A stretch of DNA of 64,000 bases from an uncultured Candidatus Saccharibacteria bacterium (GCA_964403205.1 CAYOER010000002.1:4259-68258); one strand, 5' to 3'; shown: positions 34,574 to 50,979, counted from the first letter of the stretch. A program made the numbers and translations. Notes: generated by a model from the letters alone, not told the origin.

Positions 34574-36874
34574 TTAGAAAATTAGTGGTGTCCACTCAGA
34601 CCAATCACTATTTTTGACTTTATCCCAGTTATATTCCTGTAAATTATTAATTAGAAGCTGATTACCTTTTTTCACTATTATTCCACCGAATATATCTTTT
34701 CTTTCTTGATCTCTAATATATTGCTGTAGTCTTTCTGCTTTTTCTCTAGTAATAGTCAAACCATCAGCATCACTTTGATCCTTGGTCTCAAAAATACCTA
34801 GCTTTCCATTATTAAACTGTACTATATAATCTGGATAGAAGGTGTAAATCTCATTATCTAATAAATATTTAATACCAAAATAATCATTTTTATTTTTTCC
34901 ATTTTTCCACCACCATTCAATCTTGTCTCCTTTTTCCTCAACAAAGTTTTCAAAAGCTTTTTCTGGCTCAGAACGATCTTTTTCTAAATAACAAGGTTTC
35001 ATTACATATTTAGGGACTCTTTCTACCTTTTCACTTACATTCTCATTATAATATTCGCTTTTGGGTATTTCAAAAGTATAGAACCGCTCTCCTTCAGCTG
35101 ATCTTTTCTTAACTTCTATGTCTTTAATCTTTTTATACTCATCGACAGAATCAGATATTATCTTTTTAAAATGATTTTGATTATCATCATTTATAATAAT
35201 ACTTTGTATGTATACATTTTGCCTTTTCAAATTAAAACCTAAATATTGCTCAAACCACTGATAAATAACGCTAGATATAATAGGTGTTGATCTCTTTATA
35301 TTACTAAATGAGCCTAGATTTTCTTTTAGAAAGGAATAATATTTATTTTCTATCTCATCAGAAGATGCTGATAGCTTTGCAAAATCATCAGCTTTAATTT
35401 CACCTTTGAGTAAATCAAAATCTTTAGTCTCAATGCCAGTATCTGCCATTATTTTTTGACTATATCTATCCATATCTAGAGATACGCCAACTTTCTCTAC
35501 TAACTTTTTATTATCATTTATTTTTTCTCCAGAAATTCCAAAATATTCATTAGCTTTTATCACGAATGTATCATAAAAATTTGCTTTTATATCACCATAG
35601 TCTGCTCTAGTTTTAAAATATGAAGGAAGTTTAATAGATTTATAAGTATCTATTCTTTTTGCAGGTAATCTATTTATAATATTTAACTTATATTCGTCTG
35701 GTTTTACAGTAATACTTTCAACATTAGAATATATATATCCTGTATTTAGCTTTTCATTATCATAATGCTTTCTTTCTGGCATTCTAAGTATTCTTCCAAC
35801 AATTTGTATTTCAAAAGTCTCACTTGATGACTCTCGAAGCTTTATTAAAATATGAGCTCTTGGACAATCCCAACCTGTATCAATAGCTTGTTTAAAGATA
35901 AGAAAATCTGTTTTATTATTTAAATCAATAATGCCATCAATATTTTCTGTCTTCTTGTCAGATAACCATATAGCCAACTTACCATTTGCTACTGTAATAT
36001 CATTTTTAGATAAAAATACCTGTATTGAGTCTAATTTTGCCTCACCTGCATCTGAATTGGGTATCTGTATCAATGCCAGAGGATTTATGTCAGACCCCAT
36101 TTTTTCAAATAGTTTCTTTAATTCGTTTCTCTTATTAAGAGCAGTCATCAATACTAAATCTTGAGAATCAGTTTCATCTTTTGAAATTTCATTTATTCCA
36201 TCATTAATAATTAACTCTTTTTTTATCATCCCTTGCTCAATTACATCATTTGCATTCACCTTAACATTTACTTCAACCCTAGCCCCGCTATCGGTTTTTT
36301 TAGGTGTCGCACTCATTTCAATAACAACTTCTGCACTAATTATTTCTCTGATTTCTTTTGTTCTATCTGCAGTATGACCAATATGACTTTCATCAATTAT
36401 CAATATTATTTTTCTTTTTTTATTAGTCTCAGCAATCAATTCTCTGAAATTAACTTTCTCTCCATCTTTCATTAAGATATTTTTCCACTCCTTTGTTTCT
36501 CCATCCTTACTTCTTAATTTCTCCCAGTTTGCCACAACAACCTCATTTCTATTTATTATCACTCTACTTCCACCAAACTCTTCTTCGACTAAAGAAACCC
36601 TAGGTGACCCACCAAAAATACTTTCTAAACTCTTTTTGCTTTGTATATGAAGTTCTCCCTTACCAATAGATAGCCAGATAAAGCACAGATCGTCCTTATT
36701 TCTTTCTTTTATCAATTCCTCAATAAATTTAGCAATTACTACAGTTTTTCCTGATCCCGTCGGGGATTGGAAGACTATGACTTCTCCCTTACCCTGTCTG
36801 TCTAAAAAGTGGCTTGTATTAAAAACAAGATCATTTAATGCTATTTCTTGGTATTTTTTTAAATTAATATTCAT
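34574..36874 (-). CDS. res: Type III restriction enzyme Res subunit (SF2 helicase-like ATPase plus C-terminal endonuclease region)
   Basis: QSPTGSGKTVV (motif I), LIIDESH (motif II). Overlaps the mod gene by 11 nt. Confidence 0.7.
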   Translation of the reverse strand: MNINLKKYQEIALNDLVFNTSHFLDRQGKGEVIVFQSPTGSGKTVVIAKFIEELIKERNKDDLCFIWLSIGKGELHIQSKKSLESIFGGSPRVSLVEEEFGGSRVIINRNEVVVANWEKLRSKDGETKEWKNILMKDGEKVNFRELIAETNKKRKIILIIDESHIGHTADRTKEIREIISAEVVIEMSATPKKTDSGARVEVNVKVNANDVIEQGMIKKELIINDGINEISKDETDSQDLVLMTALNKRNELKKLFEKMGSDINPLALIQIPNSDAGEAKLDSIQVFLSKNDITVANGKLAIWLSDKKTENIDGIIDLNNKTDFLIFKQAIDTGWDCPRAHILIKLRESSSETFEIQIVGRILRMPERKHYDNEKLNTGYIYSNVESITVKPDEYKLNIINRLPAKRIDTYKSIKLPSYFKTRADYGDIKANFYDTFVIKANEYFGISGEKINDNKKLVEKVGVSLDMDRYSQKIMADTGIETKDFDLLKGEIKADDFAKLSASSDEIENKYYSFLKENLGSFSNIKRSTPIISSVIYQWFEQYLGFNLKRQNVYIQSIIINDDNQNHFKKIISDSVDEYKKIKDIEVKKRSAEGERFYTFEIPKSEYYNENVSEKVERVPKYVMKPCYLEKDRSEPEKAFENFVEEKGDKIEWWWKNGKNKNDYFGIKYLLDNEIYTFYPDYIVQFNNGKLGIFETKDQSDADGLTITREKAERLQQYIRDQERKDIFGGIIVKKGNQLLINNLQEYNWDKVKNSDWSEWTPLIF

Positions 36875-38666
36875 GGATTTCTTTATATATATCTAATATT
36901 TTTTGTGGTATTGGCTCTAATCTAACCTCCTTCCAATCTTCAAAGTCAGACTCATTTAATCCCAGCGAATCTAGAGTAAAACAATATAGAATCTTTTCCC
37001 CCTCCATCTTATCTAGTTCCTTTTTTAGTGCAGGTAACTCTTTCTGACTAAGAAAGTAGTATACTGCCATAATTTTTTTACCTTGTTTGAATATCTTATA
37101 TGCAGATTTATTTCTTATTTCTTCATATATTCCTTCTCTTATACATAGCATTTCAGTACACTCTTCGGTAATTCTGATTTTCATTTCATCTCTGTTGTAA
37201 CTCTTTGGAATTAATATGGTTTTATAATACTTTAAATTTCCACCAATACCTTTTATCACCTTTCCTTTATTATTTTTATAACCCCTTATCACACGCTTAA
37301 TACGCTCATTTGTTACATCTTCACAAATATTATTTTCATTATTCGTACAAAGAATAAATTGACGATTTCCACCATCTAATTTGTTTAATTCCATAACAGC
37401 ATGACCTGTCGTGCCAGAACCAGCGAAAAAGTCTAGTATTATTGAGTCTCTTTTAGATGTTATTTTCAATATATCCTCTAAAAGGTATATTGATTTAGGA
37501 TAGTCGAAGATTTTATTACCGAGTATATCTCTGATTAGATTTGATCCATTAAATTCTGAAAAGTATTTTTTATTAGTCCAAACATTTTTGTATATTTGTT
37601 GTTCATAAAATTTTCTAAAAAGCTGATAACGACCATCAAGATGTTCTACAACAAATTCTTTATTTTCCTTATTTTTTTCTAAAAATGTATCTGGTAAATT
37701 TATCCACGAAAATTCTCTGCCATTATTAGATGTTGGTAATAATTTTATTGAGTCAGATGATGGTGATAGAGAAAACCTTTCATTCTTTTTGTTATAGTAA
37801 ATTGGATAATAGAAATCTGGTTTGTTTATTCTTAGTGTCTCTGTTCGGCAACGCATATATGGCTCTAATCTATATCTTTTTCCATCATTATCTTTCATAT
37901 CAAAGGATGCCATTACTTCTTCATCAATTGCCACACTATTAAATTCAGCAAGACTTGAATTTTTCGAGTAGACAAGCATATACTCACTGTTGGCGGAAAA
38001 AAACTTTGTAAAGTTTCTACCTTTAGGATTATGCAAAACTGTCACTAGACCCAATCTATTTTCCTCGCCAAAATATTCATCAAATAGTAAACCAAGAGTA
38101 AAAAGTTCGTTGTGATCTATTGCACAGATAAAATATCCATTATCTTTCAACAAACTTTTTGCAAGATTTAGCCTATTTTTTATAAAAGTAATAAACTTAC
38201 TATGTCTGTAACCATCATCCTTATCAATATAGTCATTGTTATATCTCCATGTAGTAGAACCCGTGTTATATGGCGGATCTATATATATCACATCAATTTT
38301 ACCAGCATGTGTATAGTTCAAAACAGAGAGCGAATGGTAATTATCTCCTTCAATTAAAATATTCACTAGTTTACTTTCATCAGTAATTATTTCTCTGCTT
38401 TTTATTTCTTTCAGAACAGGAATATTTGTCTTACACAATTCAACTACATCCTCTGGTTTATCTTCCCAGACGAGTCCGTATTTCTTGTGTTTACTGAGAC
38501 GATCAACCTCATCTATGAGTTGATCTTTTGTCCAATTATTATATTTTTCACTAACCTTTTTGGTAGATGATTCTTGTTTTGATGGTTTTTGAGACATAGA
38601 GGGATGGTTGCTATGTTGCTGGCAGGAAGCACAGAACCCCGTGCCAGCCGGACCTTTCGATCCCAT
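36864..38666 (-). CDS. mod: Type III restriction-modification Mod subunit (beta-class N6-adenine methyltransferase); the first ~24 codons are probably over-extension
   Basis: DVIYIDPPYNTGS (motif IV) precedes FFAGSGTTGHAV (motif I). Immediately upstream of res. Confidence 0.75.
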   Translation of the reverse strand: MGSKGPAGTGFCASCQQHSNHPSMSQKPSKQESSTKKVSEKYNNWTKDQLIDEVDRLSKHKKYGLVWEDKPEDVVELCKTNIPVLKEIKSREIITDESKLVNILIEGDNYHSLSVLNYTHAGKIDVIYIDPPYNTGSTTWRYNNDYIDKDDGYRHSKFITFIKNRLNLAKSLLKDNGYFICAIDHNELFTLGLLFDEYFGEENRLGLVTVLHNPKGRNFTKFFSANSEYMLVYSKNSSLAEFNSVAIDEEVMASFDMKDNDGKRYRLEPYMRCRTETLRINKPDFYYPIYYNKKNERFSLSPSSDSIKLLPTSNNGREFSWINLPDTFLEKNKENKEFVVEHLDGRYQLFRKFYEQQIYKNVWTNKKYFSEFNGSNLIRDILGNKIFDYPKSIYLLEDILKITSKRDSIILDFFAGSGTTGHAVMELNKLDGGNRQFILCTNNENNICEDVTNERIKRVIRGYKNNKGKVIKGIGGNLKYYKTILIPKSYNRDEMKIRITEECTEMLCIREGIYEEIRNKSAYKIFKQGKKIMAVYYFLSQKELPALKKELDKMEGEKILYCFTLDSLGLNESDFEDWKEVRLEPIPQKILDIYKEIHEY

Positions 38667-41241: not shown

Positions 41242-42579
41242 TTAACCGATGACTTTTTTGTCTCTAGCACATGCACCATGAGAGGTATATTTTACCTTTG
41301 ATCCAGTGCTTTCCTGAATGAGTCTATAGAGTTGGTCTTCAGTTGAGACCGATTTGATTTCAGGAATAGTTACATTCTCGAGCATTGTGGTTAGTTTCGA
41401 TTGATAGTCCAGATCACGTTTGTAATTTGGAATGAGACGACCAAAGGGTAGACCATCATGAAGATATTGATCAACATAGGGCAGAACTTTTCGATGTTGC
41501 AATATGTCAACATGTGTAACAGCTATTGAGTCAAGTCCTCCATGAGCACGCGTACATTCAGCAGCGTATTTTAGAAGGACTAGATCCAGTGCTCCTGAAC
41601 GAAAGCCGCCTTGCCAATCGTTCAATGTATTGTGTTCCTTAAGGCTCACTCCATACATCCCTACATCTTCAGTTGGAAATGGACCTGAACCATGCCTGGT
41701 CGTATAAGATCGTGTAATGCCTACTGTCTCAACTTCCCCATCAAAACAACATTCCCTGAGCAAGGAACGCGCATTTTCTGTCACGATCCTACTCCATGTC
41801 GTATATGGATGAAAACCCTGCCACTCATCCAGAAGAACTCCTTGTGCTCCCTCAAATACAGGTTTTGAAGATTGAACAAGATCTGCCACTTTCTTTTCGT
41901 TCAGAAATTGGTAATGCTTTGCCATAGATCTGTAGGCATCGACCAATTGATCAAGTTTTTCCGGACTGAAGATATTCAGTGACAATGCAATTGTTCTCGG
42001 GAGTTTTTCACCGAAATCTAATCCCAGCTCCGCAAGTTCATTGCGTTTCCTTTCAGAAATTACTTCGAGCATTGCTTTGAGTTTCCCTGCATTTGTAAGA
42101 TCAATTGCTTTGATGACTTCATCAGGATGATTGACAATATCAAACATTGTCTCACCAATTCCCTTTCCACATGAACCGTGTTTTTTTCCTCCTCGCATCC
42201 ACTCCCTTGCTTGATTTGTTGCAACATGGAATGGCGTAATAACTGGTGCACGTTCATCAATAAAATGACGATCCAGAGCGAAATGCTTGAGTTTAGGTGA
42301 CAAGCATGACGTCTCATGGGCCAGAGCTATCGGGTCCCAGAGCATGTATCTCGAAATAAGGGTTTTGACAAATGGAATGAATGTCCCGCTACCGAACTGT
42401 GAGAAGGTATGATGTAGCCCTTCATCAGTCACTACATTATGCGCTGCTTGAGATCCGCCATTATAACGTACTACAAGATCAGCATTACCGTGACGACAGA
42501 GGAAATCTGTCATAGTTCCCTTACCTTCATCACCAAAACCGAGTCCAACGATAATTCGAGCTTTTTTTGTGTTTTTCAT
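41242..42579 (-). CDS. Adenylosuccinate synthetase (PurA)-family protein, divergent in its substrate loops
   Basis: GLGFGDEGKGTMTDFL (P-loop GDEGKGK), GGSQAAHN (GGHNAGHT), SCGKGIGE (TTGRGIGP), FEGAQGVLLD (FEGAQGTLLD), HGSGPFPTE (VGAGPFPTE), THVDIL (TKLDVLD). The Asp-binding TTGRRRRTGW loop is replaced by QGGFRSG, and C-terminal STGP becomes SHGA. Confidence 0.7.
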   Translation of the reverse strand: MKNTKKARIIVGLGFGDEGKGTMTDFLCRHGNADLVVRYNGGSQAAHNVVTDEGLHHTFSQFGSGTFIPFVKTLISRYMLWDPIALAHETSCLSPKLKHFALDRHFIDERAPVITPFHVATNQAREWMRGGKKHGSCGKGIGETMFDIVNHPDEVIKAIDLTNAGKLKAMLEVISERKRNELAELGLDFGEKLPRTIALSLNIFSPEKLDQLVDAYRSMAKHYQFLNEKKVADLVQSSKPVFEGAQGVLLDEWQGFHPYTTWSRIVTENARSLLRECCFDGEVETVGITRSYTTRHGSGPFPTEDVGMYGVSLKEHNTLNDWQGGFRSGALDLVLLKYAAECTRAHGGLDSIAVTHVDILQHRKVLPYVDQYLHDGLPFGRLIPNYKRDLDYQSKLTTMLENVTIPEIKSVSTEDQLYRLIQESTGSKVKYTSHGACARDKKVIG

Positions 42580-42637
42580 AAAAAGAACCTAGCTACCTCT
42601 AGCTAGGTTCTACACTAAAACCTAATTTTTGTCAAGC

Positions 42638-43690
42638 TTAGTGTGTTGTGCGCTTTCTTCCTTTGCGACTGCCTGAGGATGTTGCGAGTGCGCCACCGGA
42701 AACTTTTCCGGCAACAATCGCTCCACGAGCAACAGGAACAAGTGCTTGTGTCGCAATCAGTGCAGCGGATACACCGCGGATTCCTTTGGACTTCAAAACA
42801 TCAGCCAAGTCATCCTCAGTTTCTCCTGCGAGCCGACCGATAGCAGCCGCCATGGTTGGAACAATGTCCGATGTTTCAGGAACCTCCAGAACGTACTCAG
42901 GATTTTCTCCTGCGTCCGACAGAAGTTTCTGCCACATTTTCTTGATGGACTTGTTCGTGCCATGATTGGTATGTCCAGGTCGAATAACGAAAACGTGATA
43001 CCGTTCGCACGTTTTCCGCACAGACTCGAGCATGGGAATTTCTGACTGAATTCTGTCCCCAAAGACTTCTTTGGCCAGTGCAGGGGTAGTCCCGTGTACT
43101 GCGGGATCTCCACTGTCGTAGAAAGGCTGTTCGTCCTCAATGAGGAAAAAGTAACCCTTTGCGCCGTCACGCTCGAATGATTCGATACGTGTATGATTGG
43201 CGGCAGCATAGAATGCAAGATGATATGCTTCGCCATTGTTTCCACCACCATTACCGGGGATGATCATTTCATTGAGTGCTGTGAGCAACTCTTTGGAGCC
43301 AATTTCAAACTGACTCATTTGGAATGCTGCATCCGGTGGGGTGGCGCGTTCATCGTCGAACATCATGAACATCACATTAGGGTGATCAGAGATCCCCTTT
43401 TCTGTGATCATGTCGATAAGTTTTGGTAACTGCTTTTGCATGTCGTGTGGAACATGCTCCATCGAACCAGTTCCGTCGAGGGCGACAATGATCGGTGTCG
43501 CATCGTTGAAACCGGGAGCGAAGCATGATTCCCTCATCCCGTTCTTGAGCTTGCGTGGGTCGAGGATATCGGCAATATTCCGAACGCCTGTCGACACAGC
43601 AGTCGCTGAACGACTGAAGGTTGAACCAGAACTTGCGAGCCCTCTTACGCCAGCATCGAAGTCCATTGAACTGAAGCCTGAATGTCCCAT
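42638..43690 (-). CDS. von Willebrand factor type A (vWA) domain protein with a C-terminal Ala/Gly-rich basic tail
   Basis: MIDAS motif IIVALDGTGSM. Rossmann-like alternation following it. The probable true start is MGHSGF at 43690. Confidence 0.6.
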   Translation of the reverse strand: MGHSGFSSMDFDAGVRGLASSGSTFSRSATAVSTGVRNIADILDPRKLKNGMRESCFAPGFNDATPIIVALDGTGSMEHVPHDMQKQLPKLIDMITEKGISDHPNVMFMMFDDERATPPDAAFQMSQFEIGSKELLTALNEMIIPGNGGGNNGEAYHLAFYAAANHTRIESFERDGAKGYFFLIEDEQPFYDSGDPAVHGTTPALAKEVFGDRIQSEIPMLESVRKTCERYHVFVIRPGHTNHGTNKSIKKMWQKLLSDAGENPEYVLEVPETSDIVPTMAAAIGRLAGETEDDLADVLKSKGIRGVSAALIATQALVPVARGAIVAGKVSGGALATSSGSRKGRKRTTH

Positions 43691-43720
43691 AGTGATTTTT
43701 TTCTCTTTGTGCCAAACCAC

Positions 43721-43876
43721 TTAGAGTTTGGCTGTTTTTGTTTCTTCCACCTGCTCAACAACAGGTTGAACAGATACGCCGGTTTCTGCGGTTTGTGTCT
43801 CTTTCTTGGTCTCATCCAATGTTTGTGCAACTTTGGAAGGACTTTCCGCCTCTGTCTCATCCACTGGTTTTCCCAT
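43721..43876 (-). CDS. Small acidic protein (51 aa) between the kinase-like and vWA genes
   Basis: Minus-strand MGKPVDETEAESPSKVAQTLDETKKETQTAETGVSVQPVVEQVEETKTAKL. Its stop abuts the vWA ORF. Confidence 0.25.
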   Translation of the reverse strand: MGKPVDETEAESPSKVAQTLDETKKETQTAETGVSVQPVVEQVEETKTAKL

Positions 43877-43907
43877 GATGTATCTTTCTTGTTTTGTTTG
43901 TTGTGGT

Positions 43908-45104
43908 TTAGGTCATTACAAGTTCGACAAATCTCTTTGGGCCGAAAACGGCTTTGGTTATCTGTCGAAATTCTGTGTAAACAGCATCAGCTGTCTGCGG
44001 TCTTCGAACACTTTTTGGTTGAAGACATCTATTGAGCAATTCCCTGATTGGCATTTCAACCGAGTCAGGAATGACTTTTTCTTCGGAACTTCCACCAAGT
44101 ATGTAAACCATGCACCACGCTGACATGTATATGTCAGACGCAGGAGATGGTAACATACTCGTGGATTTTAATTCCTCTGGAAAATAAGCTTGATACCTGT
44201 CATCAGTATAAGGAACTTTCTCACCACTACTTATCTTGCAAGAAGCAGTCCAATCTAGGATCTGTCCAAGATGGTCTTTTGCATGGATGAGAATATGATT
44301 TGGAGTAAGTGCACTGTGCACCACTCCCGAATAGTGAGCGAGGGTCAATCCCTCAAGAACTCTATTCCAAATAAATGTCATGTGTCGAGTAGACACACCA
44401 GAAGGATACGTCTTACGGATTTCCTCTAGTGTATACCACCCTTTATCAAAGCCTGGTTGTATGAGAAAAATATTTACTGTCTTTTTCCCAGAACCGTCAT
44501 CAATTCGAACTGACTCATGAAGTTCCGGCATGCGTAGTAAAAACTTACGTGCAGTTTCCTGACCAGCTGGATTGCTAGCCAAGGATTTTGCCTTCTTTCT
44601 GAAAAGGTCAAATGCTCGTGCCTCCCGCTCCATAAGGTCATTATCCTTGATTGAATGCGGTACCTTGAACAGTGCAGATGAAACAACAGATTTCTTGTCC
44701 TGAATAGTTCCCCTGAAAACACCGCATGTCCCACCGGAATAAATCCGATTGCCGACAGTATAGACATATTTGGGAGAACTAAACTGCACCAAGGCAGGAT
44801 CTTCAGTGGGCTTCGGTGACAATTCTGCTTTCTTGTCCCCGTATATTCCACCTTTGATTTTATCTTGGGCAGTATGCCAAAAAACGTTGAGAAGTCTCTG
44901 GGCCTCAGTTGTGTCCGCCACATCTTTGGGATTACCCATAAGACGGACCTTGTGTATGCACTTTGCCAGCCTACGGAACACTTTCTGGACTGCATGATAG
45001 ACCTTGTCAGAACTACCCTTTTCCAGTCCAAAAATATCTTCTGGATGATTCGCCTTCTTAAGGGCTTCGAGAAGTCTTTGTAATTCAGTCATAATTCCTT
45101 TCAA
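43908..45104 (-). CDS. Protein kinase-like (Ser/Thr kinase fold) protein with an atypical catalytic loop; possible pseudokinase
   Basis: Gly-rich loop SGGTCGVF. Beta3 Lys in SALFKVP. Catalytic-loop equivalent VVHSALTPNHILIH (HRD changed to HSA). ILDWTAS (DFG-like). YFPEE (APE-like). SDIYMSAWCMVYIL (subdomain IX). Confidence 0.5.
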   Translation of the reverse strand: MKGIMTELQRLLEALKKANHPEDIFGLEKGSSDKVYHAVQKVFRRLAKCIHKVRLMGNPKDVADTTEAQRLLNVFWHTAQDKIKGGIYGDKKAELSPKPTEDPALVQFSSPKYVYTVGNRIYSGGTCGVFRGTIQDKKSVVSSALFKVPHSIKDNDLMEREARAFDLFRKKAKSLASNPAGQETARKFLLRMPELHESVRIDDGSGKKTVNIFLIQPGFDKGWYTLEEIRKTYPSGVSTRHMTFIWNRVLEGLTLAHYSGVVHSALTPNHILIHAKDHLGQILDWTASCKISSGEKVPYTDDRYQAYFPEELKSTSMLPSPASDIYMSAWCMVYILGGSSEEKVIPDSVEMPIRELLNRCLQPKSVRRPQTADAVYTEFRQITKAVFGPKRFVELVMT

Positions 45105-45317
45105 AGATCATTGTGTTTAATTACTATAAATCACATTACATTAAAAAATACTTTTGTCAAGCAGTTCGTAATGCAAGGTAAAAATGAAACCAAACTAATC
45201 TAATTACAGTATATAATTAACTCGTATATAGTGTCAATAGTACAATATTACAAAAAACATAATAAATGGCATGTCAATATTTCCCAGACACACCAGTAGG
45301 AATAGTTCCTAAGAAAA

Positions 45318-45962
45318 TCACTTTATAAATGAATATAGAACTGCTGGTCGCATAATCCCCTGCTTCTTTGTTTTGTTTGTATTGATAAGTATACCTTCAG
45401 ACAAAATTTTCTTTCTAAAATTTCTTTTATCAAATTTTTGCTTTAATACTATTTCGTAGATAGTTTGAAGTTCAGTTAATGTAAATTCCTTTTGCAGTAG
45501 ATATTTTGCAATTGAAGTATAAATTATTTTTGATCGCAAGCGGTCAATTGCTGTTGTAAGTATTCTATTATGATCATATCCTAATATAGGTAATTCATCT
45601 ATTGTGCACCACCTTGTTTTAATTTGAGTATTTGTAATTTTACGAGGATCATCTGCAGCAAGAGCTAGATATGCAACTGATACTATTCTTCCCCGAGGAT
45701 CGCGATCTATTTCACTAAAAGTATATAATTGTTCTTTATAAATCTTACGAATTCCAGCCTTATCTTTCAATAGTCTTTCTGCAGCAATTTCTGCTGTCTC
45801 TGTTGGTAAAATAAGTCCACCAATAAGGGCCCACATACCTTTATATTGATTTGAAGAAATTACCTTACCAATGAGGACTGAGAGATTTCCATCAATAATT
45901 CTTAAACAGACAATATCTGTTGCAAGAACTGCATAGCGAATATTATTATCTGTTTTTGACAT
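45318..45962 (-). CDS. NrtR-like regulator: degenerate Nudix domain plus C-terminal winged-helix (start taken at MSKTDNN)
   Basis: GGLILPTETAEIAAERLLKDKAGI (degenerate Nudix box). The C-terminal FTLTELQTIYEIVLKQKFDKRNFRKKI resembles the NrtR DNA-binding domain. Confidence 0.45.
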   Translation of the reverse strand: MSKTDNNIRYAVLATDIVCLRIIDGNLSVLIGKVISSNQYKGMWALIGGLILPTETAEIAAERLLKDKAGIRKIYKEQLYTFSEIDRDPRGRIVSVAYLALAADDPRKITNTQIKTRWCTIDELPILGYDHNRILTTAIDRLRSKIIYTSIAKYLLQKEFTLTELQTIYEIVLKQKFDKRNFRKKILSEGILINTNKTKKQGIMRPAVLYSFIK

Positions 45963-46091
45963 TGTGTATAATATACACGATATATAACAAAAGTAAAGAT
46001 TTAATAGCACACGCCTACTTTGTTGCAATTAGAATGCTAATTCACTGCGAGCAAGTTGACAACTACTATTTTATATGATAGTTTTAAATTA

Positions 46092-46110
46092 GCATAGTTT
46101 TTTGATATTT
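46092..46110 (+). promoter_or_regulatory. Conserved promoter module (copy 2): gcatagttttttgatattt
   Basis: See 40392..40410. Confidence 0.35.
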
Positions 46111-46195
46111 CCTCTTGTTTGACCGTATCTTTTAGATCTTTTACGAGTTTTGAAAGATGCGGTTATAACGAACAACACTCAATTCAAAAGAGAAT

Positions 46196-46531
46196 ATGCC
46201 AACACAAATAACTGAAATCATCCCCGCAGGTAAGAAACGTTTAATTAACACCTTAACCGAAGCAGGTCTGACAACACTGGAAGCTTGTGCGCAAGCTGGA
46301 CCAGAAAAACTCCTAAAGTATAGGGGTTTGGGACACAAAACCTTGATTGCACTGAAAGAGCACTGCTTCAAACGCGGTATCAAATGGTCAGATAGCCATT
46401 CAAGGATTCACAAGCTGTCCATCCACTTCATGAGCCGTTACAAGCTAAGTCCCAAAGATGCAAAACTGGTAGCAACTGCATTTTACTGGGATAACGCATA
46501 TCCGACTTCCCTCCTTCATCCCATGTTTTAA
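46196..46531 (+). CDS. Small helix-hairpin-helix-like protein (111 aa)
   Basis: GKKRLINTLTEAGLTTLEACAQAGPEKLLKYRGLGHKTLIALKEH is an HhH-like pattern. Followed by the conserved terminator module. Confidence 0.3.
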   Translation: MPTQITEIIPAGKKRLINTLTEAGLTTLEACAQAGPEKLLKYRGLGHKTLIALKEHCFKRGIKWSDSHSRIHKLSIHFMSRYKLSPKDAKLVATAFYWDNAYPTSLLHPMF

Positions 46532-46546
46532 GAGACTGGAACAATC

Positions 46547-46598
46547 CCCGCCCGAACAGGAGAAACCCTCCGTTCGCTGGCGGGTTTTTCTTTTTTCT
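46547..46598 (+). terminator. Conserved terminator module, copy 1 of 6 (ccccgcccgaacaggagaaaccctccgttcgctggcgggtttttctttttt)
   Basis: Stem cccgcccgaac/gttcg(ct)ggcggg with a 2-nt bulge, followed by a T-run. The core tcgctggcgggttttt recurs at 47352-47408, 47954-48001, 52835-52884, 53465-53518 and 54229-54265. Confidence 0.6.
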
Positions 46599-46613
46599 TA
46601 ATCCTATAACCAA

Positions 46614-46629
46614 GCCCTGGTCGCGGAGC
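46614..46629 (+). repeat. Direct repeat of the tRNA-Asn 3' end (gccctggtcgcggagc); att-like junction 1
   Basis: 16/16 identical to 21580-21595. Embedded in the 35-bp unit ttcttaatcctataaccaagccctggtcgcggagc, which recurs at 47046-47079 and 47406-47442. Confidence 0.7.
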
Positions 46630-46710
46630 TTGATAAGAAAAAGTATTCTTTAGGGTGTCTTCTTTCTTATCACTATTTCTATATTTGACAATCTCTCTGA
46701 AGATAGTACG

Positions 46711-46971
46711 ATGATTCCAGATCACCACAAACCTGAAAGAATTCTTATGATAACTGAAGTAAGCAAAAGAACACTCAGAGGATACAGACAGACATGTCGT
46801 GTCAAAATCAAGATCAGCAACAAAATTGAGATCGCACGCTTGATATTCGCTCATCAACAATCTGGGGGACTGAATAATGTACCTATTGGGGATAGAGTGT
46901 ATCTCGAACCATTGGGATGGTTCAATACTGATGATGTCGAACTACTCGAAGTTCTGACTTGGGATGATTGA
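46711..46971 (+). CDS. Small hypothetical protein (86 aa)
   Basis: ORF only. TTGACA-containing promoter-like sequence upstream. Confidence 0.2.
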   Translation: MIPDHHKPERILMITEVSKRTLRGYRQTCRVKIKISNKIEIARLIFAHQQSGGLNNVPIGDRVYLEPLGWFNTDDVELLEVLTWDD

Positions 46972-47064
46972 GTCAAGACCATGAATTATCAGTAATCTCT
47001 ATTTAAGCACATAGCGCACGACCCTCGGGTACGGCGTTTTCTTTTTTCTAAATTCCGTGACCAT

Positions 47065-47079
47065 GCCCTGGTTGTAGAC
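47065..47079 (+). repeat. Degenerate copy of the tRNA-Asn 3'-end repeat (gccctggttgtagac); att-like junction 2
   Basis: Same 35-bp context (ttctaaattccgtgaccatgccctgg...) but the last 7 nt diverge. Confidence 0.45.
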
Positions 47080-47166
47080 TGAATTGACACTCCTTAATCA
47101 ATGTGTTAGTTTATTTATAGAACCAGATGAGAATCTGACAACTGTTCCAAACAAAAAAAATTAACC

Positions 47167-47337
47167 ATGAACGCAACTACGATTCCTGAAGATGTAACAA
47201 ACACGCCTGCAGGTCCAAATAATAACGGATTCATTGTGCTCGACATATTCGCTTCATCCATTGTTGGATCAGACGGCGAATGCTATACGCGTAAAAACGG
47301 AATAGTGACCATCGCCTCCGAAGAAGACGAACACTAA
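47167..47337 (+). CDS. Small hypothetical protein (56 aa)
   Basis: MNATTIPEDVTNTPAGPNNNGFIVLDIFASSIVGSDGECYTRKNGIVTIASEEDEH. Followed by terminator module copy 2. Confidence 0.2.
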   Translation: MNATTIPEDVTNTPAGPNNNGFIVLDIFASSIVGSDGECYTRKNGIVTIASEEDEH

Positions 47338-47351
47338 TGGATTCAATCACA

Positions 47352-47408
47352 CCCGCCCGAACACGAGAGCCCTAGGGCTTTCAGTTCGCTGGCGGGTTTT
47401 TCTTTTTC
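47352..47408 (+). terminator. Conserved terminator module, copy 2
   Basis: cccgcccgaacacgagagccctagggctttcagttcgctggcgggtttttctttttct. Confidence 0.55.
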
Positions 47409-47425
47409 TAAATTCTATAACCAAT

Positions 47426-47442
47426 CCCTGGTCGCGGAGCAA
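47426..47442 (+). repeat. Direct repeat of the tRNA-Asn 3' end (ccctggtcgcggagcaa); att-like junction 3
   Basis: 17/17 identical to 21582-21598. Confidence 0.7.
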
Positions 47443-47481
47443 TACTTGACACTAAACATATTCCGTGCTACCATGCTGGTA

Positions 47482-47500
47482 TAGTAGTTTTTTGACATGT
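47482..47500 (+). promoter_or_regulatory. Conserved promoter module (copy 3): tagtagttttttgacatgt
   Basis: See 40392..40410. Confidence 0.4.
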
Positions 47501-47585
47501 ATGTTGGTAGTTAGCTGTATCCCCTAGGACATTATTGTGTCTTGTGGGATACGGCCAACTAGAGGCCACGAAAAAACATCAAACT

Positions 47586-47948
47586 ATGAATAAACAATTC
47601 GTTCCACTTCACCACATTGACGCACTCTCTTATGGCCAATGGGATTTCACTCTCGAGCCATTTCGAGATTGGCTGCAGATTCAAAAACACATCGGGGTTA
47701 AAGTTCTAATTCTTCCGACCCCAAAAAGCAAGGAAGAGCAATTCAATCTAGGTATGGTAAGCCACGATATCCGCAAGGAAGCTGAGAAGTTCGCCTTGGT
47801 TGTGGTTTCCGAAGCAAGATTGCGTCATGCTGGTATTCTGAAAACAAAACCAGCCGTAGTTGTCGATGCTAAACCAATTCTGTTTCCAAGTCCATTTTTA
47901 GTTTTAGTTGTGGATGCGGATAAAAACGAACTCAGTATCACTAACTAA
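47586..47948 (+). CDS. Hypothetical protein (start taken at MNKQFVPL)
   Basis: ORF followed by terminator module copy 3. Confidence 0.3.
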   Translation: MNKQFVPLHHIDALSYGQWDFTLEPFRDWLQIQKHIGVKVLILPTPKSKEEQFNLGMVSHDIRKEAEKFALVVVSEARLRHAGILKTKPAVVVDAKPILFPSPFLVLVVDADKNELSITN

Positions 47949-47953
47949 CCACA

Positions 47954-48001
47954 CCCGTCCGAACAGGAGAAACCCTCCGTTCGCTGGCGGGTTTCTTTTT
48001 T
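47954..48001 (+). terminator. Conserved terminator module, copy 3
   Basis: cccgtccgaacaggagaaaccctccgttcgctggcgggtttctttttt. Confidence 0.55.
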
Positions 48002-48091
48002 AATACAAACCATTGACATATTCACATACTTACTTTAAACTCCATAAAAGTAAACCGTGCTGAGTAATAGTCAGCAAAACAACTAAATAAT

Positions 48092-48268
48092 ATGAACGAT
48101 AAACAAGTGGAGGAATTGAGAGCAAGCATCAATTTCCTTCATGAACACATCTGTCTTTTGGAAACTTGGGTTCAGCGAGGAGACACTCATCCTGGACTCC
48201 AAGATTGTGCGCAGAATATCAGACTTCAGTTTGAAGAAATCATGCGCAAGCTTCCACCTAAAAAGTGA
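48092..48268 (+). CDS. Small coiled-coil protein (58 aa, below the ORF-track cutoff)
   Basis: MNDKQVEELRASINFLHEHICLLETWVQRGDTHPGLQDCAQNIRLQFEEIMRKLPPKK. Confidence 0.2.
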   Translation: MNDKQVEELRASINFLHEHICLLETWVQRGDTHPGLQDCAQNIRLQFEEIMRKLPPKK

Positions 48269-48365
48269 TGGTTTTCCATACAACCACTTCATTACGAGAG
48301 TTCTGAGGTGGTTTTCTTATTTTCTAAATAATCAACAACCAATCAAATTATGATATACTAAAACC

Positions 48366-48572
48366 ATGCAAAAAATAGCCACTCGCGTATTTATATATTC
48401 ATCAATCGCCTTCGGTATCATCGGGCTACTTATTGTCTTTACTAGCTCTGGACCAGACCATATGGACACACCGTGGGATCAGACACTCGCCAAGCTTTTG
48501 TTTACTTGCGTCTTTATCATACTCCCATCTTTTGCACTCAGTATTGCTAGTAAATATTTGAGGGAAAAATAA
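48366..48572 (+). CDS. Small two-TM membrane protein (68 aa); a truncated duplicate ORF lies at 50069..50176
   Basis: MQKIATRVFIYSSIAFGIIGLLIVFTSSGPDHM... The second copy, MQRIATRVFIYSSIAFGIIGLLIVFTSSGPDHMSF*, ends prematurely. Confidence 0.35.
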   Translation: MQKIATRVFIYSSIAFGIIGLLIVFTSSGPDHMDTPWDQTLAKLLFTCVFIILPSFALSIASKYLREK

Positions 48573-48586
48573 TACAATATTATATT

Positions 48587-49189
48587 ATGAAAAAAACATT
48601 AACTATTATTTTTATTATTTTACTTATAGCGACTTTTGGTATTGTCTGGAAATTTTCAAAAAATGAAGTACAGAAACCTATTATAAGCAGTGATGAACTA
48701 GATAAAACAGATTTGATTCAATTAGACTCTCCCCGTCCTAATCAGATCATCACAAGTCCACTAATTATAAAGGGTAAGGCAAGAGGAACTTGGTTCTTCG
48801 AAGCTAGTTTCCCAATAGACCTAGTGGATTGGGATGGTAGGATAATAGCCCAAGGTATAGCTTCAGCGAAAAGTGATTGGATGACAGAAGACTTCGTCCC
48901 ATTTGAAGCAAGTCTGGATTTTACAATTGATAAAGATGTATACAGTTATAGAGGAGCACTCATTCTTCATAGAGATAATCCTTCTGGTCTACCAGAGAAT
49001 GATGACGCATTGGAGATTCCAATAGAATTTGCCAAGATCATTACATCCCCCACGATGTGCACAGCAGATGCGAAACTCTGTCCCGATGGATCCGCAGTAG
49101 GTCGTATCGGTCCCAACTGTGAGTTCGCACAGTGTCCAAACACCGACAATGGAGGAGGTGGATCAGGAATTGTACCCTTTAAATATTGA
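48587..49189 (+). CDS. Secreted/membrane-anchored protein with a Cys-rich C-terminus
   Basis: N-terminal TM/signal. CTADAKLCPDGSAVGRIGPNCEFAQCPN. Confidence 0.3.
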   Translation: MKKTLTIIFIILLIATFGIVWKFSKNEVQKPIISSDELDKTDLIQLDSPRPNQIITSPLIIKGKARGTWFFEASFPIDLVDWDGRIIAQGIASAKSDWMTEDFVPFEASLDFTIDKDVYSYRGALILHRDNPSGLPENDDALEIPIEFAKIITSPTMCTADAKLCPDGSAVGRIGPNCEFAQCPNTDNGGGGSGIVPFKY

Positions 49190-49274
49190 TTTGTCTTGTG
49201 ATACAGGGATTAGATAATTATATTTTAGATACACTTATTTATTAGAACTTTCATATGATAAATGATATTATATT

Positions 49275-50033
49275 ATGATGAAGAAAATAATTATTTTTGT
49301 TTCAGTTTTAATAATTTTAGTTGCGAGTTATTTATTTTTTAAACAAAATAAATCTATTGGTGGTAATTTTGGTTTAAGTGGTTGTGTAATTGAAGAGAAT
49401 CGTGGAGAAACAGTACCTGTTGACATTGCTCAAGCCGTTGCTCAAAGAAATGTTATTAACAATAACAAACCATATAATTGGGTGCCAGTTGGTTACTATC
49501 CCGTTTATAATAGCTCTGATTCAATTAATTATTATGCATTTGTTTTTAGAAAATCTGATTATTCAAAATTCACGACGTTGGATAGTTTAGAGCAAAATGC
49601 TAGTAATTATTCTGACGGCGATAATAAATACCAATTTAATGATATAGCTTCTGTCTGGACAGGAGCATCTAACGGACAGAAATTGCTAATGCGTCATTAT
49701 CGCGGTATTCCAGAAATTGTTGCTGAAAAGATGAAAATCAAGAATTTTATCAATGATAAGTACCAAGATAAAACTATTGGTAATATTATTGCTGATTCTG
49801 AAGCTGGTAAGATGTATTTTGATATTGTTAATAAATCAGGTGGTAAATCGACTGGTAATATTATAGGTCTTGATTATTCAATAGTTTCAAAGAAAGAGCT
49901 AATTAATAATCAGGAGAAAATAGAAGAAAAACGATATGCTGGTTTAAGTGGTGATAGATGCGACAAAATGAAACGAGCTATACTAGAAAGAGACACTGAT
50001 TTTATGAGACAGTGGAGTGAAGCTGGTAATTAA
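49275..50033 (+). CDS. Membrane-anchored hypothetical protein (252 aa)
   Basis: N-terminal TM helix. No motifs recognised. Confidence 0.3.
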   Translation: MMKKIIIFVSVLIILVASYLFFKQNKSIGGNFGLSGCVIEENRGETVPVDIAQAVAQRNVINNNKPYNWVPVGYYPVYNSSDSINYYAFVFRKSDYSKFTTLDSLEQNASNYSDGDNKYQFNDIASVWTGASNGQKLLMRHYRGIPEIVAEKMKIKNFINDKYQDKTIGNIIADSEAGKMYFDIVNKSGGKSTGNIIGLDYSIVSKKELINNQEKIEEKRYAGLSGDRCDKMKRAILERDTDFMRQWSEAGN

Positions 50034-50058
50034 AATAGATAATACTCCGTTTATGCTA

Positions 50059-50167
50059 TACTAAAACCATGCAAAGAATAGCTACACGCGTATTTATATA
50101 TTCATCAATCGCCTTTGGTATTATCGGACTGCTTATTGTTTTTACGAGTTCTGGACCGGACCATATG
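50059..50167 (+). repeat. About 109-bp direct duplication (about 90% identical) of 48356..48464
   Basis: tactaaaaccatgcaaagaatagctacacgcgtatttatatattcatcaatcgcctttggtattatcggactgcttattgtttttacgagttctggaccggaccatatg compared with the copy at 48356. Confidence 0.8.
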
Positions 50168-50305
50168 TCATTTTGAGATTCCAATAAAATTTGCCAGATC
50201 ACCACTGTAATAAATCACTAGCTAATACGGCAATATAATATGTCAAACTATAAATGACATTGAGTTGGTCTATTTTATTAACATTATAATCAAATAATAA
50301 AAATT

Positions 50306-50590
50306 ATGTCTTCATCATTATTCAAAGCTGATATTTTTTTCTTCATATCTTCTATAGCAACGATCGTATTTACAATCTTGACTTCTATTCTATTGATATA
50401 TCTCATCAAAGCTGGGAGAAATCTATACAAACTTTCAGAAACTCTGAAGAGTAGCTATAGCGATTCGGAAGAATTCATCGGAGAACTCAAGGAACGTCTA
50501 GAAAACAATATGGTATTCCGAATGTTCTTTCCTCCCCTCCGCAAAAGACGAATATCAAAATCAAATGATGATAGTACAAAAAATAATTAA
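50306..50590 (+). CDS. Small membrane protein (94 aa)
   Basis: One N-terminal TM helix. Confidence 0.3.
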   Translation: MSSSLFKADIFFFISSIATIVFTILTSILLIYLIKAGRNLYKLSETLKSSYSDSEEFIGELKERLENNMVFRMFFPPLRKRRISKSNDDSTKNN

Positions 50591-50616
50591 TTATTAGCAT
50601 TTAATAACAAAAGTAA

Positions 50617-50958
50617 ATGAAAAATAAAATAATAAAAAAGAGCTCTGGCACAGCAAAATATGTTGCAATCGGTGCTAGCATCGCTGGTATAGCGGCTGCA
50701 TATTTCTTCCTCGGCCCAAAAGGTAAAATAAATCAGAGAAAGACAAAGGCTTGGGCGATAAAAATGAAAGCAGATGTTGTAGAGAAACTCGAAGAAGTTC
50801 GTGATATGAGCGAACCTGTATATCATCAGATCATTGACACTATAGCAAAGGAATATGAGGAGAAGAAAAAAGTTGGCCGTGAAGAAATCCAATCATTGGC
50901 GATGGATTTGAAAAAACATTGGAAGACGATCAGTAAAGAGATTGGGATTGGGAAGTAA
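50617..50958 (+). CDS. YtxH-like (DUF948) membrane-anchored stress protein
   Basis: N-terminal TM helix followed by a charged helical region (KADVVEKLEEVRDMSEPVYHQIIDTIAKEYEEKKK). Confidence 0.35.
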   Translation: MKNKIIKKSSGTAKYVAIGASIAGIAAAYFFLGPKGKINQRKTKAWAIKMKADVVEKLEEVRDMSEPVYHQIIDTIAKEYEEKKKVGREEIQSLAMDLKKHWKTISKEIGIGK

Positions 50959-50979
50959 TATAGGATATAATTTATCCTT

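Follow-up and report, generated by a model that had tools for sequence, protein, structure and literature searches.

In E. coli adenylosuccinate synthetase (PurA), L-aspartate is contacted by T300, T301, R303, R305 and V273, and a vWA protein whose MIDAS site is intact typically has an adjacent NTPase as its partner. A 2026 survey recognises the phage enzyme PurZ by a Ser (or Gly) that replaces the catalytic Asp13 (PMC12884076). Among the 481 phage PF00709 proteins that it covered, the PurZ group accounted for only 147 and about five non-prokaryotic sequences fell into the E. coli PurA group, while the remainder were classed as 'other PurA homologs' (PMC12884076). Here we describe a locus in which a PurA-like protein is encoded beside a vWA protein, within a 64,000-nucleotide stretch (hereafter, the window) from an uncultured Candidatus Saccharibacteria bacterium.

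The locus and its distribution

Four co-directional open reading frames had been predicted in a GC-rich segment, and all four are present at the predicted coordinates on the minus strand. In order of transcription they encode a kinase-like protein with a J domain and a Hanks fold (43908..45092; 394 amino acids from the ATG at 45092, which is also the database gene call, in an ORF that extends to 45104), an acidic product of 51 amino acids (43721..43876), a vWA/MIDAS protein (42638..43690; 350 amino acids from the ATG at 43690, a start set by homologues, in an ORF that extends to 43720) and the PurA-like protein (41242..42579; 445 amino acids). The expected compositional contrast is also there: the three large genes have a GC content of 0.43-0.50 as compared to 0.31 in the 30-40 kb stretch and 0.34 in the whole window, and the GC3 of the cassette genes is 0.32-0.48 as compared to 0.18-0.24 in neighbouring genes. 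Codon differences from the nearest relative are mostly synonymous in the three large genes (synonymous to non-synonymous 86:41, 94:38 and 128:76), which are real genes under purifying selection.

The small acidic ORF fares differently. It is present as predicted, but its standing as a functional core gene is doubtful: codon differences are 5 synonymous versus 15 non-synonymous, no family match was found among Pfam, PADLOC, NCBIfam and PHROG models, and its recurrence is limited to L091 and L092, the nearest relatives, while two other loci (L002 and L008) have no room for it. It is lineage-specific, lies outside the conserved core and may perhaps be no functional gene.

The vWA and PurA-like genes, by contrast, travel together. 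Searching IMG/VR revealed 228 contigs with the vWA gene, and among the best 80 of these the PurA-like gene lies directly downstream on the same strand in 77, in keeping with the co-occurrence that had been anticipated; the exceptions are L020 and L087, in which a contig end cuts the locus, and L033. In the cellular loci reached through the PurA-like match (L002, L006, L008 and L093), the other two genes lie upstream in 4/4. The pair is also found in Rhizobium phages, Vibrio phages, Patescibacteria and myxobacteria, and among isolated phages the PurA-like protein has matches in 242 records and the vWA protein in 219, from the same Mycobacterium, Rhizobium and Vibrio phages. Carriers are large (Rhizobium phages of 150-207 kb, vibriophages of 190 kb and IMG/VR contigs of up to 390 kb), and the vWA family comprises 2202 cluster-50 representatives. 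The vWA and PurA-like pair is the core of the module, found mostly in large phages, and the locus in the window is a chromosomal copy of this widespread, uncharacterised, phage-centred module in a Patescibacteria-like host of low GC.

The original prediction held that no such combination had been described. For function this stands, as we found no paper that links a PurA-like enzyme with a vWA protein or describes the combination. It does not stand for gene order, which is shared by more than 200 Cluster C mycobacteriophages, among them Cali, whose gp251-254 bear no annotation beyond kinase, hypothetical protein and PurA-like. The module is thus without precedent for function only, its gene order being already present in sequenced phages.

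The PurA-like enzyme and its aspartate site

The PurA-like protein matches Pfam Adenylsucc_synt (PF00709) over its full length (1.6e-61) as well as phrog_1211 (3.8e-73). Its scores against the NCBIfam purA equivalogs (NF002223, 168.6 with a cut-off of 402; TIGR00184, 151.7 with a cut-off of 395.55) and against the PurZ model NF038379 (51.3 with a cut-off of 300) are low. The GTP/IMP-site motifs reported as kept are all found (GDEGKGT, FEGAQGVLLD and THVDIL), and the Arg-rich aspartate loop reported as lost is indeed replaced, with WQGGFRSG in place of TTGRRRRTGW and the loop rebuilt family-wide. The case that the original prediction had named as its refutation, a sole purA standing alone with its aspartate-binding residues conserved, is therefore not the one found here. 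Numbering residues by alignment to E. coli PurA revealed three features: firstly, the window protein keeps D13, K16, H41, Q224, T239, D333 and S414, and of these D13, K16, H41 and Q224 are kept in 87/87 loci and also across 122 family members, T239 being as invariant in the 87 loci as Q224 and D13; secondly, its aspartate site carries T300W, T301Q, R305F, V273H and a deletion of R303, replacements that were first seen across the 122 members and then in the 87 loci (V273H in 87/87, T301Q in 85/87, an aromatic residue for T300 in 78/87, with R303 deleted and R305 hydrophobic in the family); thirdly, contacts to the IMP 5'-phosphate are altered (N38Q, T129C, R143 lost). Judged from these residues, the PurA-like enzyme forms a branch of its own in the adenylosuccinate synthetase superfamily, the third, and its aspartate site is rebuilt. 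Because the catalytic, purine-site and guanine-recognition residues are kept, with which PurA binds GTP and phosphorylates the O6 of its 6-oxopurine nucleotide, the enzyme has likely retained this GTP-dependent activation.

Two known identities were considered and set aside. Canonical PurA is argued against by the replaced aspartate elements together with the scores below the equivalog cut-offs, and PurZ or PurZ0 by the retention of D13, the sub-threshold NF038379 score and the lack of Z-cluster neighbours, Pfam scans having found none of datZ, mazZ and dpoZ among the neighbours in the window. A PurZ0 control from phage Goodman reads GSEAKG, with a Ser at position 13 that is absent from the PurA-like family, and homologues of the vWA protein are absent from PurZ0 phages.

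Depositors annotate the gene as adenylosuccinate synthase, and the cassette could in principle be an auxiliary metabolic one, in which a divergent but genuine synthetase boosts AMP during phage infection or in purine-salvaging Patescibacteria while the vWA and kinase-like proteins act as regulators. The full-length PF00709 match and the conservation of catalytic and GTP-base residues would suit such an enzyme, as would the position of the pair in Vibrio phage Va1, beside nrdD/nrdG and an exonuclease of nucleotide metabolism. We nevertheless find this reading improbable, given that all L-aspartate contacts are replaced by residues that are conserved and not decayed, that the scores fall far below the purA cut-offs, and that the phage hosts and myxobacteria are expected on general grounds to own a purA (M. 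smegmatis, Rhizobium, Vibrio and myxobacteria alike); we also know of no counterpart in PurA biology to the near-obligate pairing with a vWA gene.

The best explanation, to which we assign a probability of roughly 0.55, is that the PurA-like enzyme works as a GTP-dependent ligase for an amine other than aspartate, with the vWA protein as its partner, in a phage-centred module. The enzyme would still form a GTP-activated 6-phosphoryl purine intermediate and would join it to some amine that is not L-aspartate; the vWA protein would either supply that amine from the glycine at its N-terminus or be an obligate subunit with a docking or regulatory role. Substrate, product and vWA role are all deduced here from residue conservation and gene linkage. 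The module may serve host takeover, counter-defence, nucleotide modification or some other end.

The vWA protein and the kinase-like protein

The vWA (Rossmann-like alpha/beta) fold of the partner protein is confirmed, with fold matches to NorD and BchD, and its MIDAS site is intact (D-x-T-x-S with an invariant D and D-E in 87/87 loci). No match was found to curated vWA models in Pfam or NCBIfam, nor to any PDB sequence; the sole profile match is phrog_2971, of unknown function. The N-terminus, which reads MGHSGFSS in the window, follows the motif M-G-x-x-x-aromatic-S/D, with Gly2 in 87/87 loci and an aromatic residue at position 6 in 84/87. This N-terminal block is modelled with less confidence (pLDDT 70 for residues 11-20), and a flexible, exposed peptide fits the structure model; the C-terminal tail is predicted to be disordered and basic. 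Comparing position 6 with the pocket residues of the PurA-like enzyme gave no clear pattern of covariation.

These fold matches, the usual partnership of MIDAS-intact vWA proteins with an adjacent NTPase, and the place of PurA in the P-loop SIMIBI/BioD-like group would all be in keeping with a remodelling machine analogous to MoxR-vWA, BchI/BchD or CobS/CobT. The PurA-like protein would then serve as a GTP switch that ligates no nucleotide and, once the J domain has brought in DnaK, would act on a client protein or metal by remodelling or loading it; the J domain itself implies chaperone involvement. A pure GTPase switch, however, has no need of Q224, T239 and the catalytic base D13, which are invariant in all 87 loci, and neither an AAA+ partner nor a conserved client gene was found near the loci, so that we regard this machine as unlikely.

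The fourth protein had been read as a possible active kinase. A protein kinase (Hanks) fold is present, but because no homologue retains the Asp of the HRD motif (23/23 and 33/33 aligned sequences have H-x-A/G/N-x-T-P-N-H at this loop), the protein is best described as a J domain joined to a pseudokinase of the Hanks fold. In this family the Asp of DW(T/S) does not vary, and beta3 is occupied by K in the window and by R in many homologues. The homologues match Pfam DnaJ and most carry an HPD motif; the corresponding site reads I-H-K-V in the window and HED or HSD in close relatives. Descent of the window J domain from the DnaJ family appears clear, whereas co-chaperone function of this copy is doubtful. 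The gene is found in 42/86 loci, about half, and the pseudokinase counts as an accessory partner. Under the ligase reading it would be an optional adaptor, unable to phosphorylate; phage copies with an intact HPD would recruit host DnaK, a recruitment that is probably weakened in the window copy.

Genomic setting, control and known systems

The cassette had been placed inside a mobile element, surrounded by R-M and recombinase cargo. The relative L091 argues otherwise: it carries the same NrtR-kinase-small ORF-vWA-PurA block without the element, 1.2 kb from tRNA-Asn and among housekeeping genes (msrA/B, def, fmt, priA), defence genes being absent there. The window has a 19.6-kb element (~21.6-41.2 kb) with a serine recombinase, methyltransferases, FtsK and Type III R-M between tRNA-Asn and cassette. 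Because this element is inserted between the two, the cassette lies beside it and not within it; the cargo flanks the cassette on a single side and is part of a separate insertion. Nucleotide identity to L091 is 83.7% in the cassette as compared to 66-70% in the flanks.

This setting bears on the proposal that the cassette serves anti-phage defence or abortive infection, with a vWA protein as sensor, a kinase and an effector that modifies nucleotides, all in a defence island. The cassette stands at a tRNA-Asn hotspot beside an R-M-bearing element, yet those R-M genes are a separate insertion and the closest relative, L091, has no defence genes around its copy. It looks horizontally exchanged, from the higher identity to L091 and the raised GC3, and PIF1, GIY-YIG and methylase genes are close by in L093; phages too may carry defence genes, but the majority of carriers are phages with large genomes, in which T4-like capsid and replication genes lie in the vicinity, and those in culture are myoviruses of a kind generally regarded as lytic. 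PADLOC-DB v2 gave no match for the PurA-like, vWA or small proteins, and the weak matches of the kinase domain (MkoA, 7.7e-14; PD-T4-6; mad6) concern a protein that lacks the catalytic Asp. With no PADLOC match for the core and a family that resides mainly in large phage genomes, we do not retain the defence module of the original prediction other than as an outside chance.

An NrtR-family regulator is encoded upstream on the same strand (45318..46028; likely start near 45962), with a Nudix domain and a winged helix (Pfam NrtR_WHD, PF21906, 4.6e-22; NUDIX, PF00293, 4.9e-9) and an NCBIfam NtrR score of 128 bits, below the equivalog cut-off of 400. Its Nudix box reads RLLKDK where REUxEE is expected, and the domain is predicted to be non-catalytic. 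An NrtR-type gene adjoins the cassette in the window, L002, L091 and L097, and in L093, where it is divergently transcribed. This adjacency spans two deeply diverged cassette lineages, whose vWA proteins are only 29% identical, and is seen in none of the phage loci and in only about half of the cellular ones. The regulator probably controls the cassette. A minus-strand palindrome (45200..45240; an inverted repeat with 16-nt arms, 81% complementary) overlaps a TTGACA-18-TATACT promoter-like site (45237-45208; 11/12 positions), the best upstream of the pseudokinase gene, in a region conserved in L091. The palindrome is a candidate operator for the adjacent regulator, although the window copy is imperfect and L002 and L093 gave none. 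The promoter of the cassette in cellular hosts would be under this NrtR-type sensor of a nucleotide sugar of the ADP-ribose class. Within the cassette, a terminator-like scan revealed a minus-strand hairpin (42584..42611) with a 12-bp stem followed by a T-run that ends at the PurA-like ATG; together with an upstream TTGACAAAAGT box, and conserved with it in L091, the hairpin may be an internal regulatory element.

Several described systems resemble parts of this module. As in NrtR regulons, an NrtR-type Nudix/winged-helix regulator adjoins the cassette in several cellular genomes, and as in phage NAD+ salvage (NARP2-type NAMPT with NMNAT/Nudix), the pair of Rhizobium phage Y65 lies 3 kb from genes for a phosphoribosyltransferase-like protein and an NMNAT/Nudix protein. 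The cassette, however, has no NAD-biosynthesis enzyme, and the NAD link is circumstantial and missing from most phage loci. Ser/Thr kinase and vWA conflict modules likewise encode a Hanks-type kinase fold beside a vWA protein, and Mokosh MkoA, PD-T4-6 and MADS mad6 are weakly matched by the kinase domain; in the module, by contrast, the kinase-like protein has a J domain and, throughout its family, no catalytic Asp, the other components of the PADLOC systems are absent and the core has no PADLOC counterpart. MoxR-vWA and chelatase pairs (BchI/BchD, CobS/CobT, NorQ/NorD) share an NTPase gene that adjoins a MIDAS vWA gene with a long flexible tail, but here the NTPase is of the PurA family with an intact purine-nucleotide site and not an AAA+ ATPase, no AAA+ gene is found in the cassette, and no metal-cofactor client is evident.

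The closest likenesses are to PurA itself and to its phage paralogues. With E. coli PurA (PDB 1ade/1cg0 series) the PurA-like enzyme shares fold, length, the P-loop GDxGKG with D13/K16, H41, Q224, T239 and the guanine-recognition residues D333 and S414; it differs in the H/W/Q/F at V273 and the aspartate loop with R303 deleted, in its 5'-phosphate ligands (N38Q, T129C, R143 lost), in scoring less than half of the equivalog cut-offs, and in a gene that is always next to the vWA gene. PurZ and PurZ0 are likewise phage-borne PurA paralogues with altered substrate use, and many records give them and the PurA-like family the identical annotation ('PurA-like', '2-aminooxy adenylosuccinate synthetase'); PurZ, however, has Ser for D13 and still uses aspartate, whereas the PurA-like family keeps D13 without the aspartate site. 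In our reading the module is distinct from canonical PurA, from PurZ, from the known defence systems and from the cargo of the neighbouring R-M element.

Cassette organisation and genomic setting

Four minus-strand ORFs span 41242–45104 of the window, exactly where the original prediction had placed them: a kinase-like gene, a 51-aa acidic ORF, a vWA gene and a PurA-like gene, with an NrtR-type regulator gene upstream. Homologues reset the start of the kinase-like gene to the ATG at 45092, giving a protein of 394 aa, and that of the vWA gene to the ATG at 43690, giving the N-terminus MGHSGFSS. Compared with the closest homologous cassette, locus L091, the ratios of synonymous to non-synonymous codon differences are 86:41, 94:38 and 128:76 for the large genes and 62:31 for the upstream regulator, and by this measure purifying selection is acting on all of them. 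The 51-aa ORF gave a ratio of 5:15 in the same comparison and is present in the nearest relatives only; it is thus a doubtful gene, and it had no matches in PADLOC, Pfam, NCBIfam or PDB sequence searches. A hairpin with a 12-bp stem and a T-run (42584–42611, minus strand) ends exactly at the PurA-like start codon and is kept in L091 at ~12470–12510; it is preceded by a CTTGACAAAAGT box, a second copy of which lies upstream of the kinase-like gene. Box and hairpin could constitute an internal promoter plus attenuator, or provide translational control, of the enzyme gene.

Locus L091 carries the block in the order NrtR, pseudokinase, 49-aa ORF, vWA and PurA-like gene, in the neighbourhood of msrA/B, def, fmt, priA and a ribosome hibernation factor gene, with a tRNA-Asn gene 1.2 kb past the PurA-like gene. 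By blastn, L091 9116–13911 corresponds to window 46001–41182 (83.7%) and L091 15052–19088 to window 21595–17465 (66%), so that the window has an insertion of about 19.6 kb (21.6–41.2 kb) between tRNA-Asn (21521–21594) and the cassette. This integrative element, not present in the syntenic relative, starts with a large serine recombinase (21555–23288) and encodes a DNA methyltransferase (25506–26261), a ParB-methyltransferase fusion (26258–27562), an AAA_25 protein (27651–29678), an FtsK-like protein (33145–34188), Type III Res (34574–36874) and Mod (36864–38666) subunits, a MarR-like protein, an Ogg-like HhH protein and a 516-aa protein without assigned function. No direct repeats of 12 bp or more flank the element; a lack of long flanking repeats is expected for a serine integrase. 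The cassette had been proposed to lie inside a mobile element and to be a candidate defence module. It instead adjoins the element, which its counterpart in L091 does without, and because the restriction-modification genes sit in the inserted 19.6 kb, the 'defence island' context belongs to that separate insertion; we found no evidence supporting a defence role.

The cassette itself does look horizontally exchanged, being far closer to L091 (83–90% amino acid identity for its proteins) than are the flanking housekeeping genes (56–63%), and richer in GC than its flanks. The compositional contrast reported in the original prediction was reproduced, with a GC content of 0.43–0.50 in the three large genes versus 0.31 in the 30–40 kb stretch and 0.34 in the whole window, and a GC3 of 0.32–0.48 versus 0.18–0.24 for neighbouring genes. 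We rejected this contrast as proof of recent arrival, since the cassette lies 5–12 GC points above its flanks in every Patescibacteria-like locus examined.

Two other regions of the window are worth recording. A single 449-aa ORF at 19323–20672 (plus strand) contains peptide deformylase together with the N- and C-terminal domains of methionyl-tRNA formyltransferase, and is thus a def-fmt fusion; in L091, def and fmt are two separate genes. Upstream of the NrtR-type gene, 46030–54700 differs from L091 and is variable and partly GC-richer (0.40–0.43), with unannotated ORFs at 46196–46531 and 47535–47948, genes for a Gmad2 Ig-like protein, a matrixin-like peptidase, an SDR and a Nudix hydrolase (52970–53449), and a PG_binding_1 gene, at which synteny with L091 resumes.

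Features of the three large proteins

The PurA-like protein is a full-length PF00709 member (1.6e-61) that falls far under every purA equivalog cut-off (168.6 versus 402) and scores 51.3 against the PurZ model, whose cut-off is 300. We mapped its residues by alignment to E. coli PurA (MG1655) and assessed their conservation in 122 database relatives and 87 loci. The catalytic base D13 as well as K16, H41, Q224 and T239 are invariant across both sets, as are the guanine-recognition residues D333 and S414; by alignment, the residues for GTP binding and for activation of a 6-oxopurine nucleotide are kept. The IMP 5'-phosphate ligands are altered (N38Q, T129C, R143 lost). The predicted loss of the aspartate-binding loop was borne out and extends family-wide, every aspartate contact being replaced: T300 by tryptophan or another aromatic residue, T301 by glutamine (85/87 loci), R305 by phenylalanine or another hydrophobic residue and V273 by histidine (87/87 loci), with R303 deleted. 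With the histidine and glutamine replacements essentially invariant, this is a rebuilt site and not a lost one, the aspartate pocket of canonical PurA being converted, as judged from the alignment, into an invariant His/Gln/aromatic pocket.

PurZ was considered as an alternative identity. Serine in place of Asp13 is the defining PurZ change (PMC12884076), and it is present in our control, PurZ0 of Microbacterium phage Goodman; the PurA-like family is without this change. With D13 kept and the HMM score below the cut-off, we rejected PurZ identity.

The vWA protein had no matches in PADLOC, Pfam, NCBIfam or PDB sequence searches, and its AF2 model is confident (pLDDT 83.8, pTM 0.84). A full HMM search placed it in a family of 2202 representatives clustered at 50% identity. 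Its MIDAS site is intact. The N-terminus reads M-G-[GSY]-[GST]-x-[WYF]-[SDN] in 87/87 paired homologues and in 135/148 independent cluster representatives, several of the exceptions being visibly fragments or mis-called starts; at most loci, MG is the earliest possible start of the ORF. Position 6 of the vWA protein showed no clear covariation with the pocket residues of the enzyme among the 87 pairs. The C-terminus is a long disordered tail with a basic tip, which reads G-R-x-R-R in the clade of the window's protein (tail at window 42638–42730) and R-[LIV] in many other members. These endings, with R-[LIV]-COOH following a low-complexity tail in many members (family representatives P0250–P0272, for example), make up a second terminal motif that is conserved. 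In one further representative, P0321 (581 aa), an intein-like insertion (C...HN...C, ~250 aa) interrupts the vWA domain just before the conserved MIDAS D-E strand.

The third protein had been described as an atypical kinase-like protein. The catalytic loop, H-x-A-x-T-P-N-H in all homologues, is missing the HRD aspartate; DFG is changed to DW(T/S), and the beta3 lysine is often arginine. On these motifs the protein is a pseudokinase, for which catalysis through the canonical base is not available. A J domain occupies its first ~90 residues; matches to Pfam DnaJ and an HPD motif are common among the homologues, and the motif is H-K-V in the window's copy and HED or HSD in close relatives.

Distribution in phages and cells

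All three proteins have PHROG families (phrog_1211, phrog_2971 and phrog_3043). Among cultured phages, tblastn matches to the PurA-like gene fall in 242 records and those to the vWA gene in 219; about 201–202 mycobacteriophages of Cluster C, 10 phages of Rhizobium and 6 of Vibrio have both genes. In Cali, one of the mycobacteriophages, the genes run kinase (gp251), vWA (gp252), small ORF (gp253) and PurA-like (gp254), and Vibrio phage Va1 and Rhizobium phage RHph_Y65 have the vWA/PurA-like pair and no kinase. Scanning IMG/VR with the vWA alignment yielded 228 contigs, many of 100–390 kb. The PurA-like gene lies directly downstream of the vWA gene on the same strand in 77 of the best 80 IMG/VR loci; in two of the exceptions (L020 and L087) the contig ends close to the vWA gene, and the third is L033. 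The PurA-like enzyme is almost never found without the vWA protein, and the conserved module of the original prediction is real.

The kinase-like gene is less constant, being present in 42/86 loci by clustering of neighbouring ORFs. A 120-aa coiled-coil protein replaces it in 23 loci, and two groups of Met/Gly-rich proteins, from 6 and 4 loci (about 10 in all), occupy the position upstream of vWA in other kinase-less loci; neither kind of upstream protein matched Pfam or PHROG. The Met/Gly-rich C-terminal half, with runs such as MMQMMMQMQMMKM, is seen in L018, L020, L027, L036, L038, L040 (~0.9 kb upstream of vWA), L053, L059, L060 and L062. Among 149 phage ORFs in the neighbourhood, Pfam revealed no further conserved partner, only ordinary phage genes including those for Gp23 capsid, Pol III alpha, DnaB and RecA.

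Phages with PurZ0 have no vWA homologues, which makes the pairing a specific trait of this branch of PurA. The paired branch accounts for about 219/276 PurA-homologue-bearing phage records and is larger than the PurZ branch among the sequenced isolates searched. Four unannotated or 'UNVERIFIED_ORG' phage records (OR845472.1, OR846603.1, OR844989.1 and OR849538.1) carry canonical PurA, 47–99% identical to that of E. coli; these genes are probably host DNA in the assemblies, not phage genes.

Relatives also occur in Patescibacteria-type assemblies, at about 50% identity for the PurA-like and 50–68% for the vWA protein, and more distantly in Cystobacter fuscus and Pyxidicoccus. Every cellular locus found through a PurA-like match (L002–L005, L006, L008 and L093) has the three-gene set. 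A profile scan of cellular genome contigs gave at least five loci among the matches listed, a figure that under-samples the cellular host range. The NrtR-type gene, encoding a Nudix domain with a degenerate catalytic box and an NrtR winged helix, adjoins the cassette in the window, L002, L091 and L097. In L093, where the vWA protein shares only 29% identity with that of the window, it is again adjacent and is transcribed divergently; beside the cassettes of L006, L008, L095, L096 and L098 it is absent. Upstream of the window's pseudokinase gene, the best promoter-like site matches 11/12 positions and is overlapped by a palindrome with 16-nt arms (45200–45240), a candidate NrtR operator. The same region aligns in L091 and has only a short overlapping palindrome there; a palindrome search at L002 and L093 detected none.

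In RHph_Y65 (L090), a phosphoribosyltransferase-like gene and a bifunctional NMNAT/Nudix gene at 465–2140, ~3 kb upstream of the vWA/PurA-like pair, resemble a phage gene set for NAD+ salvage. Taken with the adjacency of NrtR in cells, this hints at a link between the module and ADP-ribose or NAD metabolism that is suggestive but circumstantial.

Possible chemistry and relation to known systems

From these features, we propose that the enzyme would still make 6-phosphoryl-IMP or an analogue in a GTP-dependent step, and would then couple an amine other than aspartate to the activated purine nucleotide. The amine might be ammonia, glycine or a small amine of another kind; it might also be the alpha-amine at the N-terminal glycine of the vWA protein. 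The J-domain pseudokinase may act as a DnaK adaptor where HPD is intact, and NrtR may gate expression in cellular hosts.

The vWA glycine is the most economical of these candidates, given Gly2 in 87/87 paired loci, the obligate gene pairing and the aromatic-lined pocket. In that case the PurA-like enzyme would be a protein-modifying ligase: the Gly2 alpha-amine would attack 6-phosphorylated IMP or a related 6-oxopurine nucleotide, giving a protein-N6-adenylate ('purinylated') N-terminus. We consider this unlikely overall. Presenting or remodelling the substrate would fall to the pseudokinase together with DnaK; the modified vWA protein would serve phages in host takeover or counter-defence; and the copy in Patescibacteria would be a domesticated module, controlled by an ADP-ribose-type sensor. 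Should this minority possibility prove true, N-terminal modification of a protein by a purine nucleotide would be a categorically new post-translational modification, not described before.

Whichever amine is used, solving the chemistry would give a function to genes that hundreds of cultured phages carry, among them the Cluster C mycobacteriophages, which are easy to work with. A new nucleotide product or protein modification could come to light, and the retention of a phage-type module by episymbiotic Patescibacteria, beside an NrtR-type sensor, might find its explanation.

To our knowledge, phage PurA-family enzymes are known so far only from the PurZ/Z-genome pathway. A 2026 survey counted 481 phage PF00709 proteins, of which 147 were PurZ, about five were non-prokaryotic members of the E. 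coli PurA group and the rest were "other PurA homologs" (PMC12884076). Our literature search found no functional description of the PurA-like/vWA module, and a dZ metagenome preprint does not mention vWA. Annotated in hundreds of phage genomes, the module is known yet uncharacterised: the original statement that no PurA/vWA/kinase system had been described holds for function, but the gene order has precedents in phages such as Cali. On sequence grounds, we class the module as a third functional branch of the PurA family, one in which the enzyme has a vWA protein as its obligate partner. By their defining tests, the locus belongs to neither canonical PurA, PurZ, active Hanks kinases, MoxR-vWA pairs nor any PADLOC system; its closest parallels are PurA and PurZ for the predicted first half-reaction, and pairs of an NTPase and a vWA protein for the gene architecture.
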